In this document: piece by piece, positions 1 through 31,963 of the stretch
Layout of the letters: each line of letters opens with the position of its first letter
Numbering within the stretch: position 1 is the stretch's first letter
Program-made: the position numbers and the translations under genes
Notes under the pieces: generated by a model
Database searches by the model: none
What the model was told of the DNA's origin: nothing
Seen by the model: the letters and a program-made list of their open reading frames with translations, nothing else
Virus record (IMG/VR): IMGVR_UViG_2802429225_000004
Source of the DNA: a virus
Lineage: Duplodnaviria > Heunggongvirae > Uroviricota > Caudoviricetes
DNA: 44,726 nt
Reading direction: 5' to 3' (one strand)

Positions 1-1131
1 TCAAATAACCAGTTTTTTCCACTCCTTACCGCGTGCGTCGTTGTAAATATCGGTCATTTTTTGATTCGAATGACCCAGCAAAATTTTGGTATCAATTCCC
101 TGTTCTCTGAACAATCTTTCTGATAAAGATCTTTGCTCATGGAAAGAGGGTGGAGTGCCATTAGCACGCCAGTTGTAATCCACAGAATCCCGGGCTTTTT
201 TAAATGCAACTGTTAACGTTGCTGGTTTAACCATCCCGCCGCGCTTACCCATCCCCTTAGCGTGATGATGGTGCAATAACCACGGACTAAGGATGTAATC
301 ACGACAGGATGACACCACGTCACCTAGGGTCAGATTTAATTTGTCGCAACGCAGAGCCAGAGGAATGGCTATCCGGGCTCCTGTTTTTTGCTGTTCGACA
401 TGAAGGTAACCATCCCGGATATCCGAAAACTGCATTTTGCAAATATCCGAAAGACGCTGGCCCGTCATCAGTGCCAGCAGCATGCCGCGCTGTAAAAAGT
501 AACCATCCTTTTCCGCTGCGTTATAAATCATCATCCACTCATCAAAAGTCAGTCGCTGTCTTGATATCCGCACTTGCGGTTTTTTTGCCGATTCAGCCGG
601 GTTAAAGCCTGGCGGGACATCACCCGTTTGTTGAGCCTCCCGGAAAACATCGATCAATACCTTCCTGAAAATTTGTCCCATTCTGTTATGTCCCTTTGCC
701 TTGTATTCTTCCAGCACCGATACCACATCTTTTACGGTTATGGCATCTAGCGGCCTGGCTCCAAAACGTTCATCAAACACCCTGAGAGGAGCCGCTTTTT
801 GTTTCAGCGTGCTGAGCTTGATTTCTCCGTTCTCATATCTTTCCTGTTGAATTTTTCTGTAATTATTCAGAAAAATGGAAACGGTTGATGCGCCGCCGGT
901 ATCACTAATAATTTTCTCCTGCAGACTGAGCATTTGCTCCATTTGTTGTCTGGCAAGACGGCTGTTCGCTTCTGCTGCAATGGTTTCCGCCAGTTTCTGG
1001 TCAATACTGCCGAGTCCATGATTTTTACCTGTGATGGGATGCCTGTAACGCCAGTAAACTTTGTTATTTCTTTTGTCAAAATACGGAGATAAACCCGGAA
1101 CATCGGTTTTATATTTTCGCGGGCGCGCCAT
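1..1131 (-). CDS. int: Phage integrase, tyrosine recombinase (lambda Int family); stop codon is the first codon of the window
   Basis: 376-aa ORF; C-terminal catalytic-domain motifs typical of tyrosine recombinases (HxxR...Y region, LLGHSNQKMTDIY); position at prophage end next to xis. Confidence 0.9.
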   Translation of the reverse strand: MARPRKYKTDVPGLSPYFDKRNNKVYWRYRHPITGKNHGLGSIDQKLAETIAAEANSRLARQQMEQMLSLQEKIISDTGGASTVSIFLNNYRKIQQERYENGEIKLSTLKQKAAPLRVFDERFGARPLDAITVKDVVSVLEEYKAKGHNRMGQIFRKVLIDVFREAQQTGDVPPGFNPAESAKKPQVRISRQRLTFDEWMMIYNAAEKDGYFLQRGMLLALMTGQRLSDICKMQFSDIRDGYLHVEQQKTGARIAIPLALRCDKLNLTLGDVVSSCRDYILSPWLLHHHHAKGMGKRGGMVKPATLTVAFKKARDSVDYNWRANGTPPSFHEQRSLSERLFREQGIDTKILLGHSNQKMTDIYNDARGKEWKKLVI

Positions 1132-4182: not shown

Positions 4183-4365
4183 TCAGCGTCCTTTTTGCAT
4201 CAGGCGTAAACGGGCCAGCATTGAAACAATGCATATTTGATTTAATAGCTCCCGTTCGTGTTTTCTCTTATTAATGGCATCTTCAGTAAATACAGGGTTA
4301 CTGATTCTGACACCAATTTCAAAACAACCTTCAGACGTATTGACGTTTGGTAATAACGTTTCCAT
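4183..4365 (-). CDS. dicB: DicB-like cell-division inhibitor
   Basis: 60-aa product METLLPNVNTSEGCFEIGV...SMLARLRLM closely resembles remembered E. coli DicB; GAGGA RBS upstream; follows DicF-like terminator hairpin. Confidence 0.6.
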   Translation of the reverse strand: METLLPNVNTSEGCFEIGVRISNPVFTEDAINKRKHERELLNQICIVSMLARLRLMQKGR

Positions 4366-4548
4366 TATCGCGTCCTCAACAATGAATTTTGTGATGCGGT
4401 GCCTGGTGCCTCCAGGTGACGTTAACCAGTTAATAATTAACGCCGGATACAGAGAACCCACCCATAAGAACCAATACGGAAGTCAACTGGCCTTTTTAAC
4501 TGTTCCGCGTGCGCTGAGCCGCATTCACCGCATCACAAAATTCACTTT

Positions 4549-4606
4549 AAAAAGGGCGGGTATCACGGGGAAAACAAAACGGATACCCGCCAAAAGGTAA
4601 TCAACA
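4549..4606 (-). ncRNA. dicF: DicF-like sRNA ending in a rho-independent terminator
   Basis: Minus-strand hairpin GGCGGGTATC...GATACCCGCC followed by TTTTT; downstream flank AAAGTGAATTTTGTGATG.GGTGAATGCGGCT.AGCGCACGCGGAACAG matches remembered dicF-dicB intergenic sequence of Qin prophage; 5' end not determinable. Confidence 0.5.
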
Positions 4607-4932
4607 TGGGTTGTTGTGGCGGGGTTGTCACTCAGGCGTATGGTCAACCTGACAACCCGGTGCCACTAATGGGGTAAGGATAACCCCGCCATACTTACCG
4701 CCGCGCCATTTCGCGGATTGCCACAACCGGAAGCGCACGGTCGAATTAAATTTAACGACACCGTACAGACAGAAGAACTTCGCCGTGCGCTTTCGCGTTA
4801 TGCCCTGACTTTTCAGGGATATATCCTTTCAGTAAACTGTCAGTGCCGGATTCTTATCCGTGTCCGGCGCACGACTACACGTGGCAGCGTGTTGGTCTCC
4901 ATTTTTAACCCAGAACCTCAATGGAGGATAAA

Positions 4933-5142
4933 ATGCCAAACAGACCAATACATCCGCTTATTGAAAAACAGATTGAATGTCTGGTTAATCAACTCAGGCA
5001 ATCAGGGTTATTAAAAAACCATTCAGAGTTAAGGCTCACGAAATCAGCATTTGACGATAAATTAAACAATGTGCTTTATAATGGCATCATTGATTACAAT
5101 CGTGGTGTTGGTCGTCGTGGCCCTGCTGGCACCGCCCTGTAA
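4933..5142 (+). CDS. Hypothetical 69-aa protein, antisense-oriented to the surrounding minus-strand operon
   Basis: ATG preceded by GGAGGA; stop abuts the convergent stop of the 212-aa minus-strand gene; no recognisable domain. Confidence 0.3.
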   Translation: MPNRPIHPLIEKQIECLVNQLRQSGLLKNHSELRLTKSAFDDKLNNVLYNGIIDYNRGVGRRGPAGTAL

Positions 5143-5781
5143 TTACCAGTCAATCCAGAGCGGATAGTGTTCAGCGTAAATATAGCTGTATACATCAAGG
5201 TTGTATTTGTGGTCTGCTTTTAACAGGTCACAAATACATGTTGCTGCTTCCAGGGCTGAAGCTCTGTTACTGAACATCCACGTCGCAACATTCCAGCTAT
5301 TCTCTGTATCCCATTCTTTCGCAAGAGTTGACACTCTGAAGGATCCGTTGGCGTTGCCATCAAATACTTCTGTTTCCAGGTTCTTAAGCAATGCCTGATG
5401 AACTTTTGTCAGGTATTCAGCCGGAATCTTGCCACGGATTCTGATGAGATTGTCATAAACAAACATATTTCCCGCGTATGGCGATTTTTCTTTCTTGTTT
5501 TTTAAACCAGCATCATGAGCAAACTGATCAATTTCTTCTTTCATTGGTTTCGTATTGATGTTTTGCGCTGTCGTTTCTGCAATTTTCTTTGCCACACTCT
5601 CTGAGTCGTGTTTATTTACAGACGAACAGAAATACAATCCGGTAAACGCATCGCGCACATTACGAGCCATATTATCAATGTCTTTCTTCGTTGCAGATTC
5701 TAATTCAACTTCGGACAGACGTTGACAAAGTGCATGCGCTGCAATCACCTTGATTTCTTTTGGTAACTCTTTAAATTCCAT
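5143..5781 (-). CDS. Hypothetical 212-aa protein in the ydfC slot of the dicB-type operon
   Basis: Long ORF, AT-rich relative to neighbours, tightly packed behind YdfB-like ORF; no motif recognised by eye. Confidence 0.6.
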   Translation of the reverse strand: MEFKELPKEIKVIAAHALCQRLSEVELESATKKDIDNMARNVRDAFTGLYFCSSVNKHDSESVAKKIAETTAQNINTKPMKEEIDQFAHDAGLKNKKEKSPYAGNMFVYDNLIRIRGKIPAEYLTKVHQALLKNLETEVFDGNANGSFRVSTLAKEWDTENSWNVATWMFSNRASALEAATCICDLLKADHKYNLDVYSYIYAEHYPLWIDW

Positions 5782-5792
5782 CTATAACCCCG

Positions 5793-5921
5793 TTAGTCGA
5801 TAGATTTTGCCGAACTGTAAAGCGCCTGTTTAAACTCACTGAAGCTGAGAGCTTCTTCGCCTTCGGCAAGGCCTTCGAAGTATTCTTCGTAAGCCTTTTC
5901 CATGATTGTGTCGAAATCCAT
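5793..5921 (-). CDS. ydfB: YdfB-like 42-aa acidic protein
   Basis: 42-codon ORF MDFDTIMEKAYEEYFEGLAEGEE... placed 1 nt after YdfA-like stop; below the 60-aa ORF-track cutoff, translated manually. Confidence 0.4.
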   Translation of the reverse strand: MDFDTIMEKAYEEYFEGLAEGEEALSFSEFKQALYSSAKSID

Positions 5922-5922
5922 A

Positions 5923-6078
5923 TCACTCACCTGAGTTTCTTTCCAGCCAGCGACGGGCACCATTTTCGGTTTTAAACATTTTGCTTTTGGTATACGTCAT
6001 CGCGGTGAACGTGCCGTCCTGGTTGGGAAACACGCCGTACACCAGAGATTCGTTGTTGCCAAGATCGATAGTATCCAT
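5923..6078 (-). CDS. ydfA: YdfA-like small protein (DUF1391-type)
   Basis: Internal Met start MDTIDLGNNESLVYGVFPNQDGTF... (51 aa) with GAGG RBS; first gene after the palindromic operator/promoter. Confidence 0.5.
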   Translation of the reverse strand: MDTIDLGNNESLVYGVFPNQDGTFTAMTYTKSKMFKTENGARRWLERNSGE

Positions 6079-6260
6079 GTTGACCTCATTTCCCCTTAAC
6101 GCCGGGGTAGCGGAACAAAAACCTGCTGCATAGTTAAAGTTGAACCCTGCCGTCATGTTCTTACGCCTCGGGCTGGCTACTTAACCCCTGACCACTGCCT
6201 GGTAACTCGAAGTATTGCCCTGCATTCTGTGGGGCGGGGTGGGTTGGTAAAAATAATCTA

Positions 6261-6297
6261 CAATTAAAAACTGTTTTGTGTCAACAGTTTTTAATTG
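6261..6297. promoter_or_regulatory. Perfect 15-bp inverted repeat operator (CAATTAAAAACTGTT-N7-AACAGTTTTTAATTG) in the promoter region of the dicB-type operon
   Basis: Read directly from sequence; related half-sites AAAACTGT/ACAGTTTT recur in the repressor/cro divergent region. Confidence 0.5.
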
Positions 6298-6304
6298 TTG
6301 TCTT

Positions 6305-6334
6305 AGACAAAAAAACTCCCTCGAATGAGGGAGT
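6305..6334 (-). terminator. Rho-independent terminator ending the repressor-antitoxin-toxin operon
   Basis: Hairpin ACTCCCTC-GAAT-GAGGGAGT followed on the minus strand by T-tract; 17 nt after the ParE-like stop. Confidence 0.55.
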
Positions 6335-6350
6335 ATGGAAATTGTTCGGC

Positions 6351-6638
6351 TCAGATAGAGAAGGGAAATTGTCGACGGGCATGCACAATATTCGCAATTT
6401 CAATGCTTGAAGTTGCTACTCGGTACAACACGATATAATTAGGGTGAACCACAAGTTCCCGCAAACCGGATACTCGATCACTTAGCGGATATAGATATGG
6501 GTGCTCAGAGAGGGTTAAAACAGACGTTTCAATACGTATTTTTAGTCTGCGTGCTGCAGGAATGTTTTCCTTAGCAATATAGGTTACGACCTGACGCAAA
6601 TCATCGCGAGCAGATGGTAGCCATAAAATGGGTAACAT
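6351..6638 (-). CDS. RelE/ParE-family toxin (ParE2-like)
   Basis: 95-aa ORF with conserved RelE/ParE core pattern (...YIVLYRV...IEIANIVHARR); start overlaps stop of upstream small antitoxin ORF. Confidence 0.6.
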   Translation of the reverse strand: MLPILWLPSARDDLRQVVTYIAKENIPAARRLKIRIETSVLTLSEHPYLYPLSDRVSGLRELVVHPNYIVLYRVATSSIEIANIVHARRQFPFSI

Positions 6639-6829
6639 TACTCGCTCCTGTTAGTTGCAGCAATTTGAGCAATAAGATTTTCCATTTCAGCCATTACCTC
6701 GTCATGTGGAATTGCGGGGCGAGGGTCTGCAAGGCTTAACGTCACTTTAGCGCGCAACCATTCGTTGTAACTGTTTTCTTGTTCGGTAGTTTCGAATTCT
6801 GAAACTATCGGAGAAAGGGCTGTACTCAT
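6638..6829 (-). CDS. Small antitoxin (PaaA2-like) paired with ParE-family toxin
   Basis: 63-aa acidic ORF directly upstream of and overlapping the toxin gene; size and position match the PaaR2-PaaA2-ParE2 arrangement of O157 prophages. Confidence 0.5.
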   Translation of the reverse strand: MSTALSPIVSEFETTEQENSYNEWLRAKVTLSLADPRPAIPHDEVMAEMENLIAQIAATNRSE

Positions 6830-6856
6830 GGCATAACTCCTCTTCTTGTACAGTGG

Positions 6857-7258
6857 TCACGCCCGGCGGCTTTTTTGTGCCGCCAACCATCGGGCAATAG
6901 TTTCTTCCATTGATTTTTTCTTGTCTTTGATTTCTTGAAGCATTTTTTCTTGGTCTTCCTCTGGAAACGCACTAAAAGCTTGGAGCAGTTCGCGTTGGCG
7001 AGGACCAATTTTCATTGTGTCAGGGGTGAAAATTTGCTCCCCCTCATCAGGAGGCAATAAAAACCAATGCAATGGATGCCCTGTAACCTCAACCAGTTTA
7101 TCCAAACTTGAGGCTTTAGGCGTAGCCTTACCGCTGACCCATTGTTGAACTGTTTGTTGTGTCACACCAATTCTACGGGCAAGTTCAGCCTGGCTCCATC
7201 CAGTTTCCTGAAGAAGCTTGCTGATTCTGTACATAGATACTTCTAGGGCGTTCATCAT
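6857..7258 (-). CDS. HTH_XRE repressor (cI/DicA/PaaR2-like), probable prophage immunity repressor
   Basis: 133-aa ORF with HTH ISKLLQETGWSQAELARRIGVTQQTVQQW; divergent from cro-like gene; palindromic operators nearby. Confidence 0.75.
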   Translation of the reverse strand: MMNALEVSMYRISKLLQETGWSQAELARRIGVTQQTVQQWVSGKATPKASSLDKLVEVTGHPLHWFLLPPDEGEQIFTPDTMKIGPRQRELLQAFSAFPEEDQEKMLQEIKDKKKSMEETIARWLAAQKSRRA

Positions 7259-7366
7259 TATTCAATTTTACAGGTAAATACTGTTAAAAGCATCACAATA
7301 AAAAACTGTTGATTGCGTACAGTTTTTTATTGTAGGCTTTGTTTATAGTTTTCAGAGGAGGGCAAA
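7259..7366. promoter_or_regulatory. Divergent repressor/cro promoter-operator region
   Basis: Intergenic region between divergent HTH genes containing AAAAACTGTTGATTGCGTACAGTTTTTT inverted repeat similar to the 6261-6297 operator. Confidence 0.5.
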
Positions 7367-7639
7367 ATGCTAGATAGCACTCGCGAAAAAATTAGGCAGA
7401 AATACACTCAAGCTGAAATAGGTCGCTATATGGGGGTCGCTCAACAGACCGTTTGGCAATGGTTTAGCTTTGGCGTTCCCCCAAAGCAGGTAATTCCGTT
7501 ATGCCAGTTAATGAAGTGGGAAGTTACCCCGCATGAAATTCGCCCTGACATTTATCCCAACCCAACAGATGGACTACCTTGTGGAAATAAGTGTATGTCG
7601 AATGAATCACTGGCGGTGAACAATGATATTCACTCCTGA
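7367..7639 (+). CDS. Cro/YdaS-like small HTH regulator
   Basis: 90-aa ORF, strong RBS GAGGAGGG, HTH-like EIGRYMGVAQQTVWQW; divergent from repressor. Confidence 0.6.
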   Translation: MLDSTREKIRQKYTQAEIGRYMGVAQQTVWQWFSFGVPPKQVIPLCQLMKWEVTPHEIRPDIYPNPTDGLPCGNKCMSNESLAVNNDIHS

Positions 7640-8174
7640 GCAGGCTCGCGAGGCTCTGGATGCCTGGGTATGTCGACCAGGAATGACGCAGGAGCAGGCG
7701 ACGATATTAATCACAGAGGCATTCTGGACTCTGAAAGAACGCCCGAACATCGATGTTCAACGTGTCACATTTGATGATGGCGCGGTTGATCAACGGGCGC
7801 TTGGCGTTAACAGAGTGAAGATATTCGAACGCTGGAAAGCTATTGACACCAGGGATAAGCGTGAAAAATTCACGGCGTTGATTCCGGCAATTATGGAGGC
7901 TATCCGGATCAGTGATTTCAGGTTGTATTGTGAAATTACTGACGGAAAAAGCATTACGTACATGATCGCCGGGTTAAACAAAGAATATGGCGATGTGGTG
8001 GAGTCCGGGCTGCTTTTTGCGGATCCCGCTGTTGTGGAACGTGAGACTGACGAGCTTATAGAAAAAGCTATTGCTTTCAAGCATGCGTATCGTCAGCAAT
8101 ACCAACATTATTTTGCAGATAAACAAATGTCTGTCTGGGGTTCGTATGAGTATCGATGCACTACGATGGGCTAA
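7623..8174 (+). CDS. Hypothetical early protein (CII/YdaT position)
   Basis: 183-aa ORF overlapping cro-like stop; no motif recognised. Confidence 0.4.
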   Translation: MIFTPEQAREALDAWVCRPGMTQEQATILITEAFWTLKERPNIDVQRVTFDDGAVDQRALGVNRVKIFERWKAIDTRDKREKFTALIPAIMEAIRISDFRLYCEITDGKSITYMIAGLNKEYGDVVESGLLFADPAVVERETDELIEKAIAFKHAYRQQYQHYFADKQMSVWGSYEYRCTTMG

Positions 8175-11665: not shown

Positions 11666-11949
11666 GATGGCTTTTGTGGACAAAGACGGCATCGAAGTAG
11701 AGAGCTCAACTCACTGGATGCCGCTACCGGAACCACCGCAGGAGGTGAATCAATGACCTGGCCTGAGGCATTCACCACGGTAGGAATTGCACTGGCGGTG
11801 GCGCTGGTGGTGTATTCGATTTGCCGCTGGGGATAAAAACGATTTGCGGGAAAAGGATAGTTAAGTAGAATGGCTGCGGGTGCTTGAGGCTATCTGTCTC
11901 AGGCATGAACACCAACGGCAGATAGAGAAAAGCCCCAGTTAACATTACG

Positions 11950-12020
11950 CGTCCTGCAAGACGCTTAACATTAATCTGAGGCCATATCTATGACTTGCAC
12001 ACGTAGGTTAGCCTCTTACG
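11950..12020 (-). ncRNA. Putative Sok-type antisense RNA region of the hok locus
   Basis: Inferred from the canonical hok/mok/sok organisation only; boundaries not resolvable from sequence. Confidence 0.25.
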
Positions 12021-12046
12021 TGCCGAAAGGCAAGGAGAAGCAGGCT

Positions 12047-12202
12047 ATGAAGCAGCAAAAGGCGATGTTAATCGCCCTGATCGTCATCTGTTTAACCGTC
12101 ATAGTGACGGCACTGGTAACGAGGAAAGACCTCTGCGAGGTACGAATCCGAACCGGCCAGACGGAGGTCGCTGTCTTCACAGCTTACGAACCTGAGGAGT
12201 AA
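12047..12202 (+). CDS. hok: Hok-family type I toxin (HokD/RelF-like); overlapping mok frame begins at 11990
   Basis: 51-aa product MKQQKAMLIALIVICLTVIVTALVTRKDLCEVRIRTGQTEVAVFTAYEPEE is a hallmark Hok sequence; upstream overlapping reading frame as in mok. Confidence 0.85.
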   Translation: MKQQKAMLIALIVICLTVIVTALVTRKDLCEVRIRTGQTEVAVFTAYEPEE

Positions 12203-15008: not shown

Positions 15009-15368
15009 ATGCGTATAGAGTTTGTTTTGCCTTACCCACCGACGGTGAACACCTACTGGCGACGTCGTGGCAGCACATATTTTGTATCAAAAGCCGGTGA
15101 GCGTTATCGCCGGGATGTGGCACTTATTGTTCGCCAGCAGCGACTGAAATTAAACCTGTCCGGAAGGCTGGCGATAAAGATTATTGCAGAGCCACCGGAT
15201 AAGCGCCGTCGTGACTTGGACAATATCCTGAAAGCACTACTGGATGCGCTGACGCATGCGGGACTACTCATAGACGACGAGCAGTTTGATGAAATTAATA
15301 TTGTGCGCGGTCTGCCTGTTCCTGGTGGTCGGTTGGGGATAAAAATCACAGAACTGGAGTGCGCATGA
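15009..15368 (+). CDS. rusA: RusA Holliday-junction resolvase
   Basis: 119 aa; conserved RusA pattern DKRRRDLDNILKALLDALTHAGLLIDDEQ...GGRLGIKITE. Confidence 0.8.
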   Translation: MRIEFVLPYPPTVNTYWRRRGSTYFVSKAGERYRRDVALIVRQQRLKLNLSGRLAIKIIAEPPDKRRRDLDNILKALLDALTHAGLLIDDEQFDEINIVRGLPVPGGRLGIKITELECA

Positions 15369-16054
15369 ATAACCAGTATTTACAGTTTGTTCGTGAGCAG
15401 CTCATTATCGCCACCGCCGATTTGAGTGGGGCAACAAAAGGCCAGCTTGAAGCCTGGCTGGAGAATGCCATGTTCGATACAGGGCGTTACAGGCGTAAAA
15501 AAATCCGGTACCGCGATGAAGTGACTGGAAAAATGGTCACGCGGGATAATCCACCAATCCCGGGGAAACAATCGCTGGCAAAGGGGACGTCAATTCCTCT
15601 GGTAAGTCAGGTTGAGTTTTCGACATCATCATGGCGACGGGCAGTTCTGTCTCTTGAAGAGCACCATAAAGCCTGGTTGCTGTGGTGTTACAGCGGCAGC
15701 ATTTGCTGGGAACACCAGATTGCGATAACACAGTGGGTGTGGAATGAATTTAACGCCCAATCCGGTACCAGAAAAATTGCAGGGAAAACGCTGGAGCGCC
15801 TGAAAAAATTAATCTGGCTGGCGGCACAGGATGTGAAGAGTGAGCTGGCTGGGCGTGAAACTTATGAATATCAGGAACTGGCATTACTGGCGGGAGTAAC
15901 AACAAAAAACTGGTCCAAAACATTTACTGGTCACTGGGTTGCAATGAAACACATTTTCCACCGTCTGGATAGTGAGGCTTTATTGTTTGTGATGAGAACA
16001 CGCTCAGAACAAAAGGCGGCATTTTCAAAGCAAAGTGTTGCAAAAGTAGATTAA
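15365..16054 (+). CDS. Late-gene antiterminator Q-like protein
   Basis: Position immediately after rusA and before tR'/tRNAs/lysis; ATG overlaps rusA stop (ATGA); family assignment by synteny. Confidence 0.5.
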   Translation: MNNQYLQFVREQLIIATADLSGATKGQLEAWLENAMFDTGRYRRKKIRYRDEVTGKMVTRDNPPIPGKQSLAKGTSIPLVSQVEFSTSSWRRAVLSLEEHHKAWLLWCYSGSICWEHQIAITQWVWNEFNAQSGTRKIAGKTLERLKKLIWLAAQDVKSELAGRETYEYQELALLAGVTTKNWSKTFTGHWVAMKHIFHRLDSEALLFVMRTRSEQKAAFSKQSVAKVD

Positions 16055-16379: not shown

Positions 16380-16455
<76 letters not shown>

Positions 16456-16458
16456 TAT

Positions 16459-16533
<75 letters not shown>

Positions 16534-29842: not shown

Positions 29843-30455
29843 GGTTCTGGGGGATTTACAGCGCCGCCTGGCAAATATGGTCCGGCGCGGGGTGATCCAC
29901 TCGGTGCGGCTGGACGGTGGTTTTCCGGAATGCCGCGTGGATCTGGGGGATATTGTGACCACCTGGCTGCCATTATGTCAGGGGTTTGCCGGAAAAAACA
30001 GGGCAGATTTTGAGCCGTTTGCTGTGGGTGATGCGGTTACGGTGCTGTCAGAGGCCGGGGAGCTGAATAACGGTCGTGTTTTTCCCGGCTGGAATACCGG
30101 TGAGGCACCGGCTCCGCAGGGCAGCGACAGTGAGCACATCACCCGTTACGGAGATGGTACTGAAATTTGCTATAACCGGGAGACGCACTCACTGACCATT
30201 ATTCTGGCGGAAGGGGGCACCTATGCCATTACCGGGAATGGTGTACTGGACGGAAACGTCATGATTTCAGAAAACCTGATCGTGAACGGACGCACGATGG
30301 TTGAAGGTGAAGTGGTGGTGAAAAGTGATTTTTATGCAAAAGGAGAGGTGACGGATAAATCCGGCAGTATGAGCCGGATCCGGGAAACGTTTAATGGACA
30401 CGACCATCCCGGAGACAGTGGGGGAACCACGAAAGTACCGAATCAGAAAATGTGA
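29820..30455 (+). CDS. Baseplate spike/assembly protein gpV-like (P2 V family)
   Basis: N-terminal OB-like region and C-terminal HDHPGDSGGTT motif match remembered P2 gpV. Confidence 0.7.
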   Translation: MRESHVNEVLGDLQRRLANMVRRGVIHSVRLDGGFPECRVDLGDIVTTWLPLCQGFAGKNRADFEPFAVGDAVTVLSEAGELNNGRVFPGWNTGEAPAPQGSDSEHITRYGDGTEICYNRETHSLTIILAEGGTYAITGNGVLDGNVMISENLIVNGRTMVEGEVVVKSDFYAKGEVTDKSGSMSRIRETFNGHDHPGDSGGTTKVPNQKM

Positions 30456-30493
30456 CCTGCTGCGGCAGGTTTTTTTATGTCCGGAGAATGCAA

Positions 30494-31963
30494 ATGGGGC
30501 AATTACATGGTGTGGAAACCATCGAGCTGACAGCAGGCACGGTGGCGGTAACCACAATAGAGACAGCCATTATTGGGGTGGTGGGAACCGCGCCGCAGGC
30601 TGCCGGGGCTGTGGCAGCAACACTGACAGCGGGAACGCCGTTGCTGGGTAACGAGCTGACCTTTACGGCAAAAGCGGCGGGGCGGAGCGGAAATACCATT
30701 ACCGTTATTGCTGAACAGGCTTTACAGGCAGCAAAAGAAAAAAGTGCGGGTGCGGTCCCCACGTCAGCAAAATGGGAAAACGGAAGCCTGTTGATTTGGC
30801 TTGGATGCAGTGAAGAGGGGGCCGGTAATGCCACCGTCAGCGATGTTGTGACGGCAGTGAATGGCGTGGCTGGGGTCGGGGTGAGTGCCACCGGCAGCGG
30901 TGACGGTATTGTGTCGCCGTTTTCCGGCACACTGAGTGGCGGTGAAGATGAACCGTTTCCGCTGAACACGCCAGTGGCGATGGCGGGAACAACGGCGCTT
31001 TCACGTCTGGGGCTCACCGGAACACTGAAGCAGGCGCTGACGGAGATTAACGACCAGCGTAACGCGCTGTCGGTGATCGTCCGGGTGGAAGAAAAAACGA
31101 AGCCGGAAGAGCAGCGTGCTGCCATTCTTGCGGGGATCAGCATGCTGTCATCGGCAAAATCCGTCACCACGTATCAGCCACGTATTGTGATTGCACCAGG
31201 ATTCAGTGAAGACGATGCGGTAGGTAAGGCACTGGAAACTGTGGCCGGAAAACTGCGGGCAGTGGCGTACGTGGATTGTGCTGCGGGCGCGACACTGCAG
31301 GAAGTGGTGCAGCGTCGTCAGTCTTACGGTGCCCGGACTGAACTACTGCGCCCGCGTGTGCAGGTCAGTAATGCAGAGGGGCAACTGGTGTATCGCCCGT
31401 ATTCGGCGTTTGCTGCCGGACTGCGTGCCCGTATTGACTATGAAAAAGGGTGGTGGTGGAGCAAATCAAACCAGGAGGTTTACAACATCCTCGGTGTTGA
31501 GCAGGTGGATGAATTTATCCTCGGTGAGCGTAACTGCGATGCCAACCTGCTTAATATGCAGAATGTCTCCACCCTGATCCGCCGCGCCGGATTTAAACAC
31601 TGGGGAAACCGGCTGTGCTCGTCCCATCCTCAGTGGCATTTCGAGTCCGTCCGCCGTACTGCGGATGTGATTGAAGACAGTATTCAGGAAGCGATGCTGG
31701 CATATGTTGACCGCCCGCTTGATCGTCAGAATGCGGACGACATCATTGGCACCATTAATGCGTATATGCGCCGTCTGGTGGCAGAAGGTGCCATCTTCGG
31801 GGGGCGGGCATGGCTGGATCCGGAACTGAATACCGCCGAAACGCTGGCAGCCGGTGAACTGTACATCAACTATGACTTCGGTCCCAAATCGCCGACTGAA
31901 CTTATCAGCATGCGGGTGAGCGTCAACAACGAATACGGCATTAAGGAGATGAAGGCAACATGA
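30494..31963 (+). CDS. Contractile tail sheath protein (P2 FI / Mu L family) with an extra internal region
   Basis: N-terminus HGVETIELTAGT...TAIIGVVGTA resembles P2 FI; large size with roughly 100-aa insertion near N-terminus. Confidence 0.8.
   Translation: MGQLHGVETIELTAGTVAVTTIETAIIGVVGTAPQAAGAVAATLTAGTPLLGNELTFTAKAAGRSGNTITVIAEQALQAAKEKSAGAVPTSAKWENGSLLIWLGCSEEGAGNATVSDVVTAVNGVAGVGVSATGSGDGIVSPFSGTLSGGEDEPFPLNTPVAMAGTTALSRLGLTGTLKQALTEINDQRNALSVIVRVEEKTKPEEQRAAILAGISMLSSAKSVTTYQPRIVIAPGFSEDDAVGKALETVAGKLRAVAYVDCAAGATLQEVVQRRQSYGARTELLRPRVQVSNAEGQLVYRPYSAFAAGLRARIDYEKGWWWSKSNQEVYNILGVEQVDEFILGERNCDANLLNMQNVSTLIRRAGFKHWGNRLCSSHPQWHFESVRRTADVIEDSIQEAMLAYVDRPLDRQNADDIIGTINAYMRRLVAEGAIFGGRAWLDPELNTAETLAAGELYINYDFGPKSPTELISMRVSVNNEYGIKEMKAT

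Follow-up and report, generated by a model that had tools for sequence, protein, structure and literature searches.

Genes of the region

Within the window, by which we mean the whole 44,726-nucleotide stretch of DNA analysed, genes for a repressor, an antitoxin and a ParE-family toxin lie head to tail on the minus strand and end in an intrinsic terminator (Table 1). The open reading frames, Pfam matches and terminator fold confirm this gene unit, which had been proposed in the initial annotation. The terminator has an 8-bp stem with 5 GC pairs (-13.9 kcal/mol, z = -3.8), and is kept 3' of parE in relatives.

Table 1. Coordinates of genes, promoters and candidate operators in the window
Feature	Position	Strand	Remarks
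dicB	4183-4365		after 212-aa ORF; Pfam DicB 7.3e-37
212-aa ORF	5143-5781		after ydfB-like ORF
ydfB-like ORF	5793-5963 (as called)		after ydfA-like gene; annotated 42-aa ydfB would start at internal MDFDT
ydfA-like gene	5923-6078	-	first of PL operon; DUF1391 4.7e-27
PL-like promoter of ydfA-ydfB-...-dicB	6255-6284	-	-35 TTGACA 6284-6279, 18-bp spacer, -10 TAGATT 6260-6255
OL1, candidate 15-bp operator	6260-6274		ACAATTAAAAACTGT; between PL -35 and -10; kept in relatives
OL2, candidate operator	6284-6298		OL1's 15-bp operator inverted; immediately upstream of PL -35
Intrinsic terminator of repressor-antitoxin-toxin unit	6305-6334	-	stem 6334-6315, then T-run
ParE-family toxin, type-1 allele	6351-6638	-	95 aa; Pfam and PDB match
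PaaA-type antitoxin, type-1 allele	6638-6829	-	63 aa; Pfam and PDB match
Repressor (PaaR1-type, DicA/CI analogue)	6857-7258	-	133 aa; ORF list, Pfam and structure match
PRM-like -10, TAAAAT	7265-7270	-	6 nt 5' of repressor ATG; read from sequence
OR3 candidate	7270-7284		ACAGGTAAATACTGT; abuts repressor-promoter -10; 25 bp from OR2
OR2, candidate operator	7295-7309		ACAATAAAAAACTGT; palindrome 2 arm
PR-like promoter of cro-like gene	7309-7338	+	-35 TTGATT 7309-7314, 18-bp spacer, -10 TAGGCT 7333-7338
OR1, candidate operator	7319-7333		ACAATAAAAAACTGT inverted; between PR -35 and -10
Cro analogue, YdaS family	7367-7639	+	90 aa; Pfam YdaS_toxin 7.8e-10
CII analogue, YdaT family	7623-8174	+	183 aa; Pfam YdaT_toxin 1e-5

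The repressor combines an N-terminal 434-like helix-turn-helix (HTH; Pfam HTH_3, 2.1e-13) with a C-terminal domain of the DicA/PaaR oligomerisation type. Pfam finds no Peptidase_S24 domain in its 133 residues. The top solved-structure match of the HTH is the 434 repressor (2e-5), and this 434-type HTH is the sole match of the repressor in the PDB, which contains no PaaR-like structure. The Gifsy-1 and Gifsy-2 repressors are among its nearest phage relatives. The antitoxin belongs to the PaaA2 family (PF21217, 2.6e-21), its residues 3-56 match PaaA2 in PDB 3ZBE/5CW7 (2.9e-22), and Pfam detects no DNA-binding family in its 63 residues. The toxin matches ParE_toxin (PF05016, 1.4e-14) and ParE2 in PDB 5CW7_B (1.5e-36; 64.5% identity over residues 1-93). 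PADLOC returned no defence-family match for ParE, PaaA, YdaS, YdaT or the 212-aa ORF, and only generic HTH matches for the repressor.

The antitoxin stop and parE start overlap (TAATG), while 27 bp, including a GAGGAG Shine-Dalgarno sequence, separate the repressor from the antitoxin gene. The scans found no terminator in this gap and, between 6830 and 7258, nothing promoter-like on the minus strand. Gene order and the short gap, with a single terminator placed 3' of parE, are compatible with an operon.

The initial annotation described the unit as PaaR2/PaaA2/ParE2-like. The PaaA2 and ParE families stand, but the orthologue is a different locus. Repressor, antitoxin and toxin share 97/90/84% protein identity with ECs_1069/1068/1067 of the O157:H7 Sakai prophage Sp4, compared with 33/65/63% for paaR2-paaA2-parE2. 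On the basis of a literature statement and background knowledge, we take Sp4 to be CP-933M and its repressor gene to be the one named paaR1. On sequence identity, the locus is thus an orthologue of CP-933M/Sp4 paaR1-paaA1-parE1, and not of paaR2-paaA2-parE2. A homologue of paaR2-paaA2-parE2 has been located on CP-933M (PMC8630535), and PMC8630535, PMC3141249 and PMC4803016 cite Hallez et al. 2010 as the source for paaR1-paaA1-parE1.

Divergent from the repressor lies a YdaS-family gene whose product is 42% identical to the repressor across the HTH and has nearly the same recognition helix (GVAQQTVWQW against GVTQQTVQQW). It is followed by a YdaT-family gene, a family to which a CII-like role has been assigned (PMC8630535, PMC9986795). 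The YdaT operator of CP-933P, TTGATT-N6-AATCAA, has no meaningful match here, so this CII-like arm is putative. On the other side, the ydfA-ydfB DNA is 97.5% identical to that of Qin, and 83% nucleotide identity to Qin is also found within the dicB operon. Rfam gave no DicF match in this operon, whether at gathering or with E relaxed to <= 1, the lone match being a sub-threshold STnc100 (4388-4542). Direct alignment reveals a diverged DicF-like stretch that lacks 9 nt and is altered at many positions of the DicF core, the terminator alone being conserved.

Palindromes, promoters and candidate operators

Two perfect palindromes flank the gene unit. The 15-bp repeat with a 7-bp spacer reported at 6261-6297 is correct, and extends by one more pair to 6260-6298 (16-nt arms 6260-6275 and 6283-6298, 100% complementary, 7 nt between). 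As had also been proposed, it sits in the dicB-operon promoter, TTGACA-N18-TAGATT lying inside the palindrome, and a related repeat occupies the divergent repressor/cro region at 7295-7333 (15-nt arms 7295-7309 and 7319-7333, 100% complementary, 9 nt between). The inverted-repeat search finds palindrome 2 with a seed of 7, while the whole-window run with a seed of 8 lists palindrome 1 of the two. The palindromes are 78% identical over 45 nt or, with one inverted so that the promoters run parallel, 76% over 51 nt, and have the half-site ACAAT(T/A)AAAAACTGT in common. The pattern AAAACTGT-N9-ACAGTTTT, allowing up to 3 mismatches, has 2 matches in 44.7 kb, each without a mismatch, where 0.29 would be expected. 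Similarly, all 4 exact copies of the 15-mer ACAATWAAAAACTGT in the window are at the two palindromes.

Each palindrome arm is itself pseudo-symmetric (ACA-N9-TGT), resembling a 434 operator. We infer that each arm represents one 15-bp, 434-like operator, giving OL1 and OL2 at one end and OR1 to OR3 at the other, spaced 24-25 bp; three of these 15-bp sites, at 24-25-bp spacing, fall in the 108-bp repressor-cro intergenic region. OR3 deviates at 3 positions, a degree of similarity for which chance predicts about 2.8 matches across the window. Support for OR3 comes from position and conservation. It is kept in 20 unique OR sequences, varying only at central position 6, and is also present in a relative whose repressor is 81% identical (L090). 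Both OR3 and the TAAAAT -10 lie outside the pattern used for retrieval, yet are conserved.

PL matches the promoter consensus at 10 of 12 positions in the promoter scan and is directed at ydfA-ydfB-...-dicB. Its TGTCAA core is invariant in relatives, while the flanking spacer is variable, and TTGAC occurs at the equivalent position in four other immunity types. PR, at 7/12, is under the scan threshold, and its assignment as a probable promoter comes from parallel alignment with PL. In the 20 unique OR sequences, changes in the PR -10 are confined to positions 3-5 (TAGNNT), and the -35 reads TTGAT(T/C) in 19. The putative PRM -10 is invariant in all 20. No Shine-Dalgarno sequence is present upstream of the repressor ATG, and the repressor mRNA is predicted to be leaderless. 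A CP-933P-type locus (L006) has equal geometry (GATAAT, 6 nt, ATG), and leaderless paaR2 has been demonstrated by 5' RACE (PMC8630535).

Conservation of the sites and exchange of the cassette

The first scan of IMG/VR required the four main operator arms, whose invariance in that set is therefore partly by construction. A protein-based scan, which lifts this bias only as regards presence or absence, found the palindrome in 41/41 IMG/VR loci whose repressor reaches 92% identity. The TQQTVQQW helix is retained in more distant relatives of 81%, 70% and 48% overall identity, and so are 15-bp ACA...TGT sites (ACAGTAATTTACTGT, ACAAGAAATAACTGT and ACAAGATCATCTTGT). Repressors with the helix AQQSVQKW or a PaaR2 N-terminus are accompanied by other operator words, common to OL and OR within each locus. 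The inter-operator spacer is hypervariable among relatives. In one of them (L039), the OL2 site is kept but flipped, which fits independent pseudo-symmetric 15-bp sites. An exact-pattern scan for the palindrome in GTDB species-representative genomes gave 0 hits, and the breadth documented is that of E. coli-type prophages. In the GenBank phage collection, a ParE of the same family was found in phage Evi only, and is of type 2.

The toxin-antitoxin (TA) cassette lies immediately 3' of the repressor in 6/6 compared loci where it is intact. Across the compared loci, the alleles of PaaA and ParE fall into two classes that vary together, consistent with cognate pairing. The cassette as a whole is less constant. 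The same repressor and operators are found with a type-1 TA, a type-2 TA or a deleted TA, near relatives carry unrelated ORFs instead, and TA alleles reassort relative to repressor classes. By these comparisons, the slot 3' of the repressor is exchangeable. The initial annotation was right to place the TA pair in the position that lambda uses for rexAB, but its description of the module as hard-wired into the immunity operon does not hold.

Immunity-region model, rival explanations and known systems

We consider it likely, with a probability of about 0.87, that a lambdoid prophage of E. coli, belonging to the DicA/PaaR class, has its immunity (lysis-lysogeny) region here, with the ParE/PaaA cassette as passengers behind the repressor. 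The gene set and order, the operator-like sites, the PL promoter and the Sp4/CP-933M orthology are established at the sequence level, and the order exonuclease, dicB, replication genes is as in Sp4. Co-occurrence of repressor and palindrome, covariation of the sites with the recognition helix, and analogy suggest that one repressor acts on both the PL/dicB promoter and the repressor/cro region, as the initial annotation proposed. Points against this model are the uncalled PR with its 7/12 score, the near-chance match of OR3, the operator-arm invariance that is partly by construction, the absent YdaT operator, and the lack of detected ParE2 activity in CP-933P.

In the proposed mechanism, repressor dimers would bind 15-bp, 434-like operators with the consensus ACA(A/G)(T/G)NAAA(A/T)ACTGT. 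OL1 and OL2 would flank the PL -35, and OR1 to OR3 would cover PR and the repressor's own promoter. Occupation of OR1/OR2 and OL1/OL2 would keep the cro-like and cII-like genes and the toxic ydfA...dicB operon off. The centre of OR2 lies some 44 bp 5' of the repressor ATG, and this site probably stimulates the weak, leaderless PRM; OR3 would shut PRM when the repressor level is high. The YdaS-like protein, its recognition helix being nearly that of the repressor, may compete for the same sites as Cro does. The paaA and parE genes would be translated from the PRM transcript, hence made in the lysogenic state only, and could act as an addiction module or otherwise benefit the lysogen. With no S24 autocleavage domain in the repressor, induction is expected to proceed via an antirepressor or switch flipping, rather than RecA cleavage, a route likened to that of DicA and the Gifsy repressors.

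Could the palindromes instead be mainly RNA or DNA hairpins, such as a back-up terminator at 6260-6298 behind the parE terminator, or a cruciform? Both fold well as RNA (-17.6 and -17.1 kcal/mol, z about -5 to -6), and a terminator-like element is called at 6298-6260, where a 16-bp stem is followed by AGATTATTTT. However, the stems are A/U-rich with 3 GC pairs, a strong sigma-70 promoter lies within palindrome 1, and the same 15-mer recurs at OR, where there is no transcript to terminate. The PL and PR transcripts begin downstream of the repeats, the flipped arm in L039 abolishes the hairpin but preserves the 15-bp site, and across relatives the sites follow the recognition helix of the repressor. 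The hairpin explanation was therefore rejected as very improbable. A variant of the immunity model, in which a repressor tetramer or octamer occupies each 39-bp palindrome as a single extended operator rather than as two dimer sites, is unlikely but deserves more weight. It would account for the perfect symmetry over 39 bp, and PaaR2, with the same C-terminal domain, is reported to octamerise (PMC8630535). Separate dimer sites are favoured by the 434-like pseudo-symmetry of each arm alone, by OR3 as a lone third site, by the flipped arm, and by the arm gap in Sp4 (10 bp against 9 bp).

The remaining alternatives concern the cassette. That paaA-parE is an autonomous TA operon, with its own promoter and PaaA-ParE autorepression, beside an unrelated phage repressor, seems improbable. 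Its alleles reassort against repressor classes in the manner of a mobile cassette, and a review of Hallez et al. 2010 reports that the PaaA-ParE complex partly represses the paaR promoter (PMC4803016). Yet PaaA has no DNA-binding domain according to Pfam, the PDB and PMC8630535, no promoter-like site precedes it on the minus strand, and its gene follows the repressor stop after a terminator-free 27 bp. Moreover, the pair lies directly 3' of the repressor wherever it is intact in the compared loci, and the paralogue is transcribed as an operon (PMC8630535). Another unlikely proposition is that the slot between the repressor and OL is a cargo hotspot for lysogen-expressed genes, where ParE/PaaA is an interchangeable occupant that, rather than plain addiction, serves RexAB-like exclusion or abortive infection, or keeps the immunity region from being lost or replaced. 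Free reassortment of cargo counts to some extent against a published proposal, in which the TA restrains rearrangements of the immunity region.

The arrangement itself is ordinary and already known, having been described in O157:H7 prophages CP-933M/Sp4 and CP-933P. Published accounts cover the PaaR-PaaA-ParE system, its occurrence within a lambdoid immunity operon, and repressor control of PR, PRM and PL (the dicB promoter), and the logic of a CI-like repressor acting on OR and the PL/dicB promoter is documented for PaaR2 (PMC8630535) and DicA (PMC10448788). The present analysis makes two modest additions: an explicit operator model for the PaaR1 type (PL with two and OR with three 434-like sites of 15 bp, and a leaderless PRM), and the reassortment of TA alleles, repressor classes and other cargo in the slot, which bears on why prophages retain TA pairs beside repressors.

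Among known systems, lambda cI-rexA-rexB likewise places passenger genes between cI and OL/PL, cotranscribed with the repressor from PRM in lysogens, as predicted here; its cargo is RexAB instead of a ParE/PaaA pair, for which we know of no exclusion phenotype. The SOS-cleavable repressors of lambda, 434 and P22 have a C-terminal S24 autocleavage domain that is missing here. In 434, three glutamines read the ACAA of the operator, as crystal structures have established. Gln28, Gln29 and Gln33 of 434 align with Gln34, Gln35 and Gln39 of the present repressor, and the operators here start with ACAA or ACAG and end in CTGT. The 434 repressor and Cro (PDB 2OR1, 1PER, 1RPE), the top structural match of the HTH, also have a common recognition helix, but bind 14-bp ACAA...TTGT operators rather than 15-bp sites. 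Further differences are the DicA/PaaR-type C-terminal domain here, in place of the S24 type, and the inverted pair that two operators form around the -35.

Qin dicA-dicC/dicBp has the same design, with a short repressor lacking S24 that acts on a divergent cro-like gene and on the PL-like promoter of ydfA-ydfB-...-dicB. DicA represses dicBp and dicCp, and the antirepressor Rem relieves repression of dicBp (PMC10448788). The repressor here is 28% identical to DicA, with an alignable C-terminal domain. Qin differs in having other operators and no TA cassette between dicA and dicBp, and the DicF region here is diverged and unrecognised by Rfam.

CP-933P/Sp12 paaR2-paaA2-parE2 with ydaS-ydaT (Jurenas et al. 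2021, PMC8630535) has the same repressor-antitoxin-toxin order, divergent cro-like and cII-like genes, OR and OL/PL operators, dicB region downstream, PaaA and ParE families, and spacing of -10, 6 nt and ATG at the repressor promoter. In that prophage, PaaR2 represses PR933P and PL933P, both PaaR2 and YdaS give footprints on OR and act as repressors of PR933P, PRM933P and PL933P, the paaR2 operon is transcribed as such, and ParE2 activity was undetected in either switch state (PMC8630535). PaaR2 resembles the present repressor over the C-terminal ~50 residues (41% identity over the C-terminal 98 aa), but the N-terminal DNA-binding region has no detectable sequence similarity (33% overall, from an alignment of residues 37-133). 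The operators are likewise different, being GTTTAGTAA-type repeats in CP-933P and ACAAT..ACTGT here, and the CP-933P YdaT site is missing. The CP-933P TA is of the other allele class, 63-65% identical to the TA here, and cross-neutralisation between PaaA1 and ParE2 is reported to be absent (PMC4803016).

Sp4/CP-933M shows several differences in detail. One extra base separates OL1 from OL2, giving the 10-bp arm gap and a 19-bp PL spacer, the YdaT-like protein is 141 aa instead of 183 aa, and parE has diverged further in its 3' half, suggestive of a mosaic. Sp4 has the same OL and OR operators and the same flanks, with exonuclease, dicB and ydfA-like genes on one side and ydaS-like, ydaT-like and replication genes on the other.

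Gene content and closest relatives

The window is apparently a complete lambdoid prophage, encoding an 824-aa exonuclease, the dicB region, DnaT-domain and lambda P-like replication genes, and a Q antiterminator; it also encodes the large terminase and the sheath and fibre of the tail. The lambda-type integrase and early region are joined with a contractile-tail sheath module, and two tRNA genes are also carried. A hok/sok locus is a second toxin–antitoxin (TA) system of the same prophage.

Features of the window (strand and remarks where available)
Feature	Position	Strand	Remarks
Lambda-type integrase	1-1131		
STnc100 match, sub-threshold	4388-4542		beside the dicF-homologous stretch
Stretch homologous to Qin dicF	4515-4620	-	diverged: 9-nt deletion, many core substitutions, terminator kept; no DicF recognised here by Rfam
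73-aa ORF	4921-5142	+	adjoins the 212-aa ORF on the opposite strand
212-aa ORF	5143-5781	-	occupies the PL-operon position of ydfC; no family assigned by Pfam or PADLOC; ORF of equal length annotated hypothetical in E. coli RM9088
OL1 (candidate)	6260-6274		between PL -35 and -10
OL2 (candidate)	6284-6298		directly upstream of PL -35
Intrinsic terminator	6334-6315	-	good; 3' of parE
Toxin ORF, 95 aa	6351-6638	-	Pfam ParE_toxin, 1.4e-14
Antitoxin ORF, 63 aa	6638-6829	-	Pfam PaaA2, PF21217, 2.6e-21
HTH repressor, 133 aa	6857-7258	-	Pfam HTH_3
OR3 (candidate)	7270-7284		ACAGGTAAATACTGT; 25 bp beyond OR2
OR2 (candidate)	7295-7309		
OR1 (candidate)	7319-7333		with OR2, arranged around PR as OL1/OL2 around PL
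PR			TTGATT, 18 bp, TAGGCT; weaker than PL
YdaS-family gene, cro-like	7367-7639	+	Pfam
YdaT-family gene, cII-like	7623-8174	+	Pfam
sok antisense RNA (hok/sok type I TA)	11878-12052	+	Rfam RF01794, 109.5 bits
Q antiterminator gene	15359-16054		
Two neighbouring tRNA genes	16380-16452, 16459-16530	+	just 3' of the Q gene
Contractile-tail sheath module	30452-31963		

The initial annotation proposed an operon of repressor, antitoxin and toxin genes ending in a terminator, and three such minus-strand ORFs are indeed present. The gap between the repressor stop and the antitoxin start is only 27 bp and contains a GAGGAG Shine-Dalgarno; a sequence scan found no promoter- or terminator-like sites between these genes. 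The stop codon of the antitoxin and the start codon of the toxin overlap in TAATG. To the left of the terminator lie a ydfA-like gene (DUF1391), a ydfB-like gene, the 212-aa ORF and dicB.

The proposed PaaR2/PaaA2/ParE2 likeness holds for the families: in addition to the Pfam assignments, the toxin aligns with ParE2 of E. coli O157:H7, whose structure is solved (5CW7; 1.5e-36, 64.5% identity, residues 1-93), and the small ORF matches PaaA2 (3ZBE; 2.9e-22, only residues 3-56). The closest copy, however, is of the paaR1 type. Prophage Sp4 of O157:H7 Sakai, which we take to be the counterpart of CP-933M, has the same locus with the same neighbours and operators, and its proteins are 97% (repressor, ECs_1069), 90% (PaaA, ECs_1068) and 84% (ParE, ECs_1067) identical. 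CP-933M carries a homologue of the paaR2-paaA2-parE2 system of the same O157:H7 strain (PMC8630535). The window therefore carries an orthologue of the first of the two systems, paaR1-paaA1-parE1. Of 5,426 complete E. coli genomes, 509 contain 80% or more of the 1.6-kb region (best identity 95.6%), and 842 contain paaA-parE-like DNA.

The true PaaR2, taken from a CP-933P-type locus and agreeing with the sequenced protein in its N-terminus (MQKKE), aligns with the window repressor in the C-terminal part only (41% over 98 aa; last 45 residues nearly identical). DicA of Qin is 28% identical, including the same C-terminal motif. These alignments place the repressor in a DicA/PaaR class whose members, judged by sequence, have the C-terminal domain in common and differ in interchangeable DNA-binding heads. 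Divergence from Sp4 is much greater in the 3' half of parE (window 6351-6500 against L002:3501-3650, the Sp4 locus) than elsewhere in the immunity region, where the repressor gene is ~97% identical; this suggests a recombination mosaic within the toxin gene.

Palindromes and a proposed operator model

Both palindromes named by the initial annotation are real. The left one is perfect and one bp longer on each side than claimed (6261-6297), with 16-nt arms (6260-6275 and 6283-6298) and 7 nt between; the related repeat in the repressor/cro divergent region is also perfect, with 15-nt arms (7295-7309 and 7319-7333) and 9 nt between. Both are 15-N9-15 when arms are taken as 15 nt (ACAATTAAAAACTGT at the left site, ACAATAAAAAACTGT at the right). 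In the window the 15-mer occurs four times in exact form, each time within these palindromes, and a search for AAAACTGT-N9-ACAGTTTT with up to three mismatches found no further site in 44.7 kb (0.29 expected). As claimed, the left repeat sits in the dicB-operon promoter: PL, a near-consensus sigma-70 promoter on the minus strand (TTGACA-18 bp-TAGATT), lies inside it and is directed at ydfA...dicB. Read in the PL direction, the left site aligns over 51 nt with the right site read rightward; the two are thus homologous promoter-operator units that point away from each other, as PL and PR do in lambda. In Sp4-type copies (L002:3420-3440 and several IMG/VR loci), an additional T between OL1 and OL2 lengthens the PL spacer from 18 to 19 bp, which might weaken PL in these prophages.

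The closest HTH to that of the repressor is the 434 repressor, whose Gln28/Gln29/Gln33 align with Gln34/Gln35/Gln39. In 434 co-crystals, these glutamines recognise the conserved terminal ACAA of the 14-bp operators. Each palindrome arm is itself a pseudo-symmetric 15-mer, starting with ACAA and ending with CTGT, and so would be a candidate operator for one repressor dimer. The candidates are spaced 24-25 bp centre to centre, the same spacing as in lambda OR1-OR2-OR3. An alternative role for the palindromes as hairpins is incompatible with locus L039, where one OL site is flipped (ACAATAAATAACTGT read on the same strand), an arrangement compatible with independent pseudo-symmetric sites.

A TAAAAT hexamer (7270-7265, minus strand) abuts OR3, six nt before the repressor ATG, which has no Shine-Dalgarno before it. 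This arrangement is matched at the CP-933P-type locus (GATAAT, 6 nt, ATG), where 5' RACE found paaR2 mRNA to be leaderless (PMC8630535); by analogy, we infer that PRM of the window is leaderless. OR2, centred at about -44, would activate PRM if it behaves as in lambda and as reported for PaaR2. The YdaS-like recognition helix (GVAQQTVWQW) is almost identical to that of the repressor (GVTQQTVQQW), as would be expected of a Cro competing for the same sites. Pfam finds no S24 domain in the repressor, its phage relatives include Gifsy repressors, and DicA repression is lifted by the antirepressor Rem independently of RecA (PMC10448788). Induction is therefore likely to proceed through an antirepressor or switch flipping.

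Conservation of the candidate operators

A scan of IMG/VR with the exact operator pattern returned 42 loci. In 35 of them both palindromes are present at the window's spacing of ~1,035 bp, and one locus, L007, is identical to the window in each of the five proteins compared. A second scan, blind to the operators, used the repressor protein as query and returned 50 loci. The palindrome was present in all 41 with repressors at least 92% identical, and its exact form in none of the nine with more distant repressors. Three of these nine (81%, 70% and 48% overall repressor identity) keep the TQQTVQQW helix and have 15-bp ACA...TGT sites round a TTGAC -35 (ACAGTAATTTACTGT, ACAAGAAATAACTGT, ACAAGATCATCTTGT), whereas AQQSVQKW repressors have CACTTTTAAAGTG-type sites instead. 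In each of six immunity types (window/KY180/Sp4 as one, O22, RM9088, CP-933P and Qin), OL and OR share their own words; constant across types are the transcribed ydfA leader (…GGGGTGGGTTGGT) and the TTGAC core.

That the four main arms do not vary follows in part from the way loci were retrieved. OR3, the PRM and PR -10 hexamers and the 9-bp OR1-OR2 gap lay outside the search pattern. Within the window type, OR3 changes at central position 6 alone, the PRM -10 shows no variation, T1, A2 and T6 are retained in the PR -10, and the gap is hypervariable after TTGAT, patterns that would be expected of functional sites.

The TA cassette and known systems

PaaA and ParE form two co-varying allele classes, type 1 (window, Sp4, RM9088) and type 2 (CP-933P, O22, L039). 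Window-type repressors are paired with either class, type 1 in the window and Sp4 and type 2 in L039 (repressor 92% identical), and type 2 accompanies three different repressor classes. L039/L089 (IMGVR_UViG_2545824644_000012), with a window-type repressor, the same OR and a ParE 92% identical to ParE2, shows that TA alleles are swapped across immunity types. The pair can also be lost: two IMG/VR loci (L021, L030) have a 352-bp deletion that joins paaA codon 22 to the final 22 codons of parE (at L021:7990-8115) and leaves the palindromes 683 bp apart rather than about 1,035 bp, with the repressor and both operator sets intact. In the 81% and 70% relatives, unrelated ORFs occupy the slot behind the repressor (L090:2553-2915, 120 aa; L091:2580-2951, 123 aa); neither has a PADLOC match, and the former has a sub-threshold Pfam EACC1 match (1.1e-4; 22.6 bits, cut-off 23.6). 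In the 48% relative, the repressor gene is followed immediately by an N-like gene. On these comparisons, the TA cassette is exchangeable cargo, and the description of it as hard-wired into the immunity operon was too strong; the comparison with rexAB is apt for position and expression. With these refinements (paaR1 type, exchangeable TA), the initial interpretation is supported at the level of sequence.

The PaaR-PaaA-ParE architecture and logic of this region are already known. In CP-933P, PaaR2 acts as CI, YdaS as Cro and YdaT as CII, with operators at OR and OL/PL933P, a leaderless repressor and an addictive TA (PMC8630535); in Qin, dicBp and dicCp are repressed by DicA (PMC10448788). No departure from this published picture was found in the window. 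Unlike CP-933M and CP-933P, the window prophage looks complete rather than cryptic. Its immunity region holds a close orthologue of the CP-933M/Sp4 system, which is the sister of the one on CP-933P.
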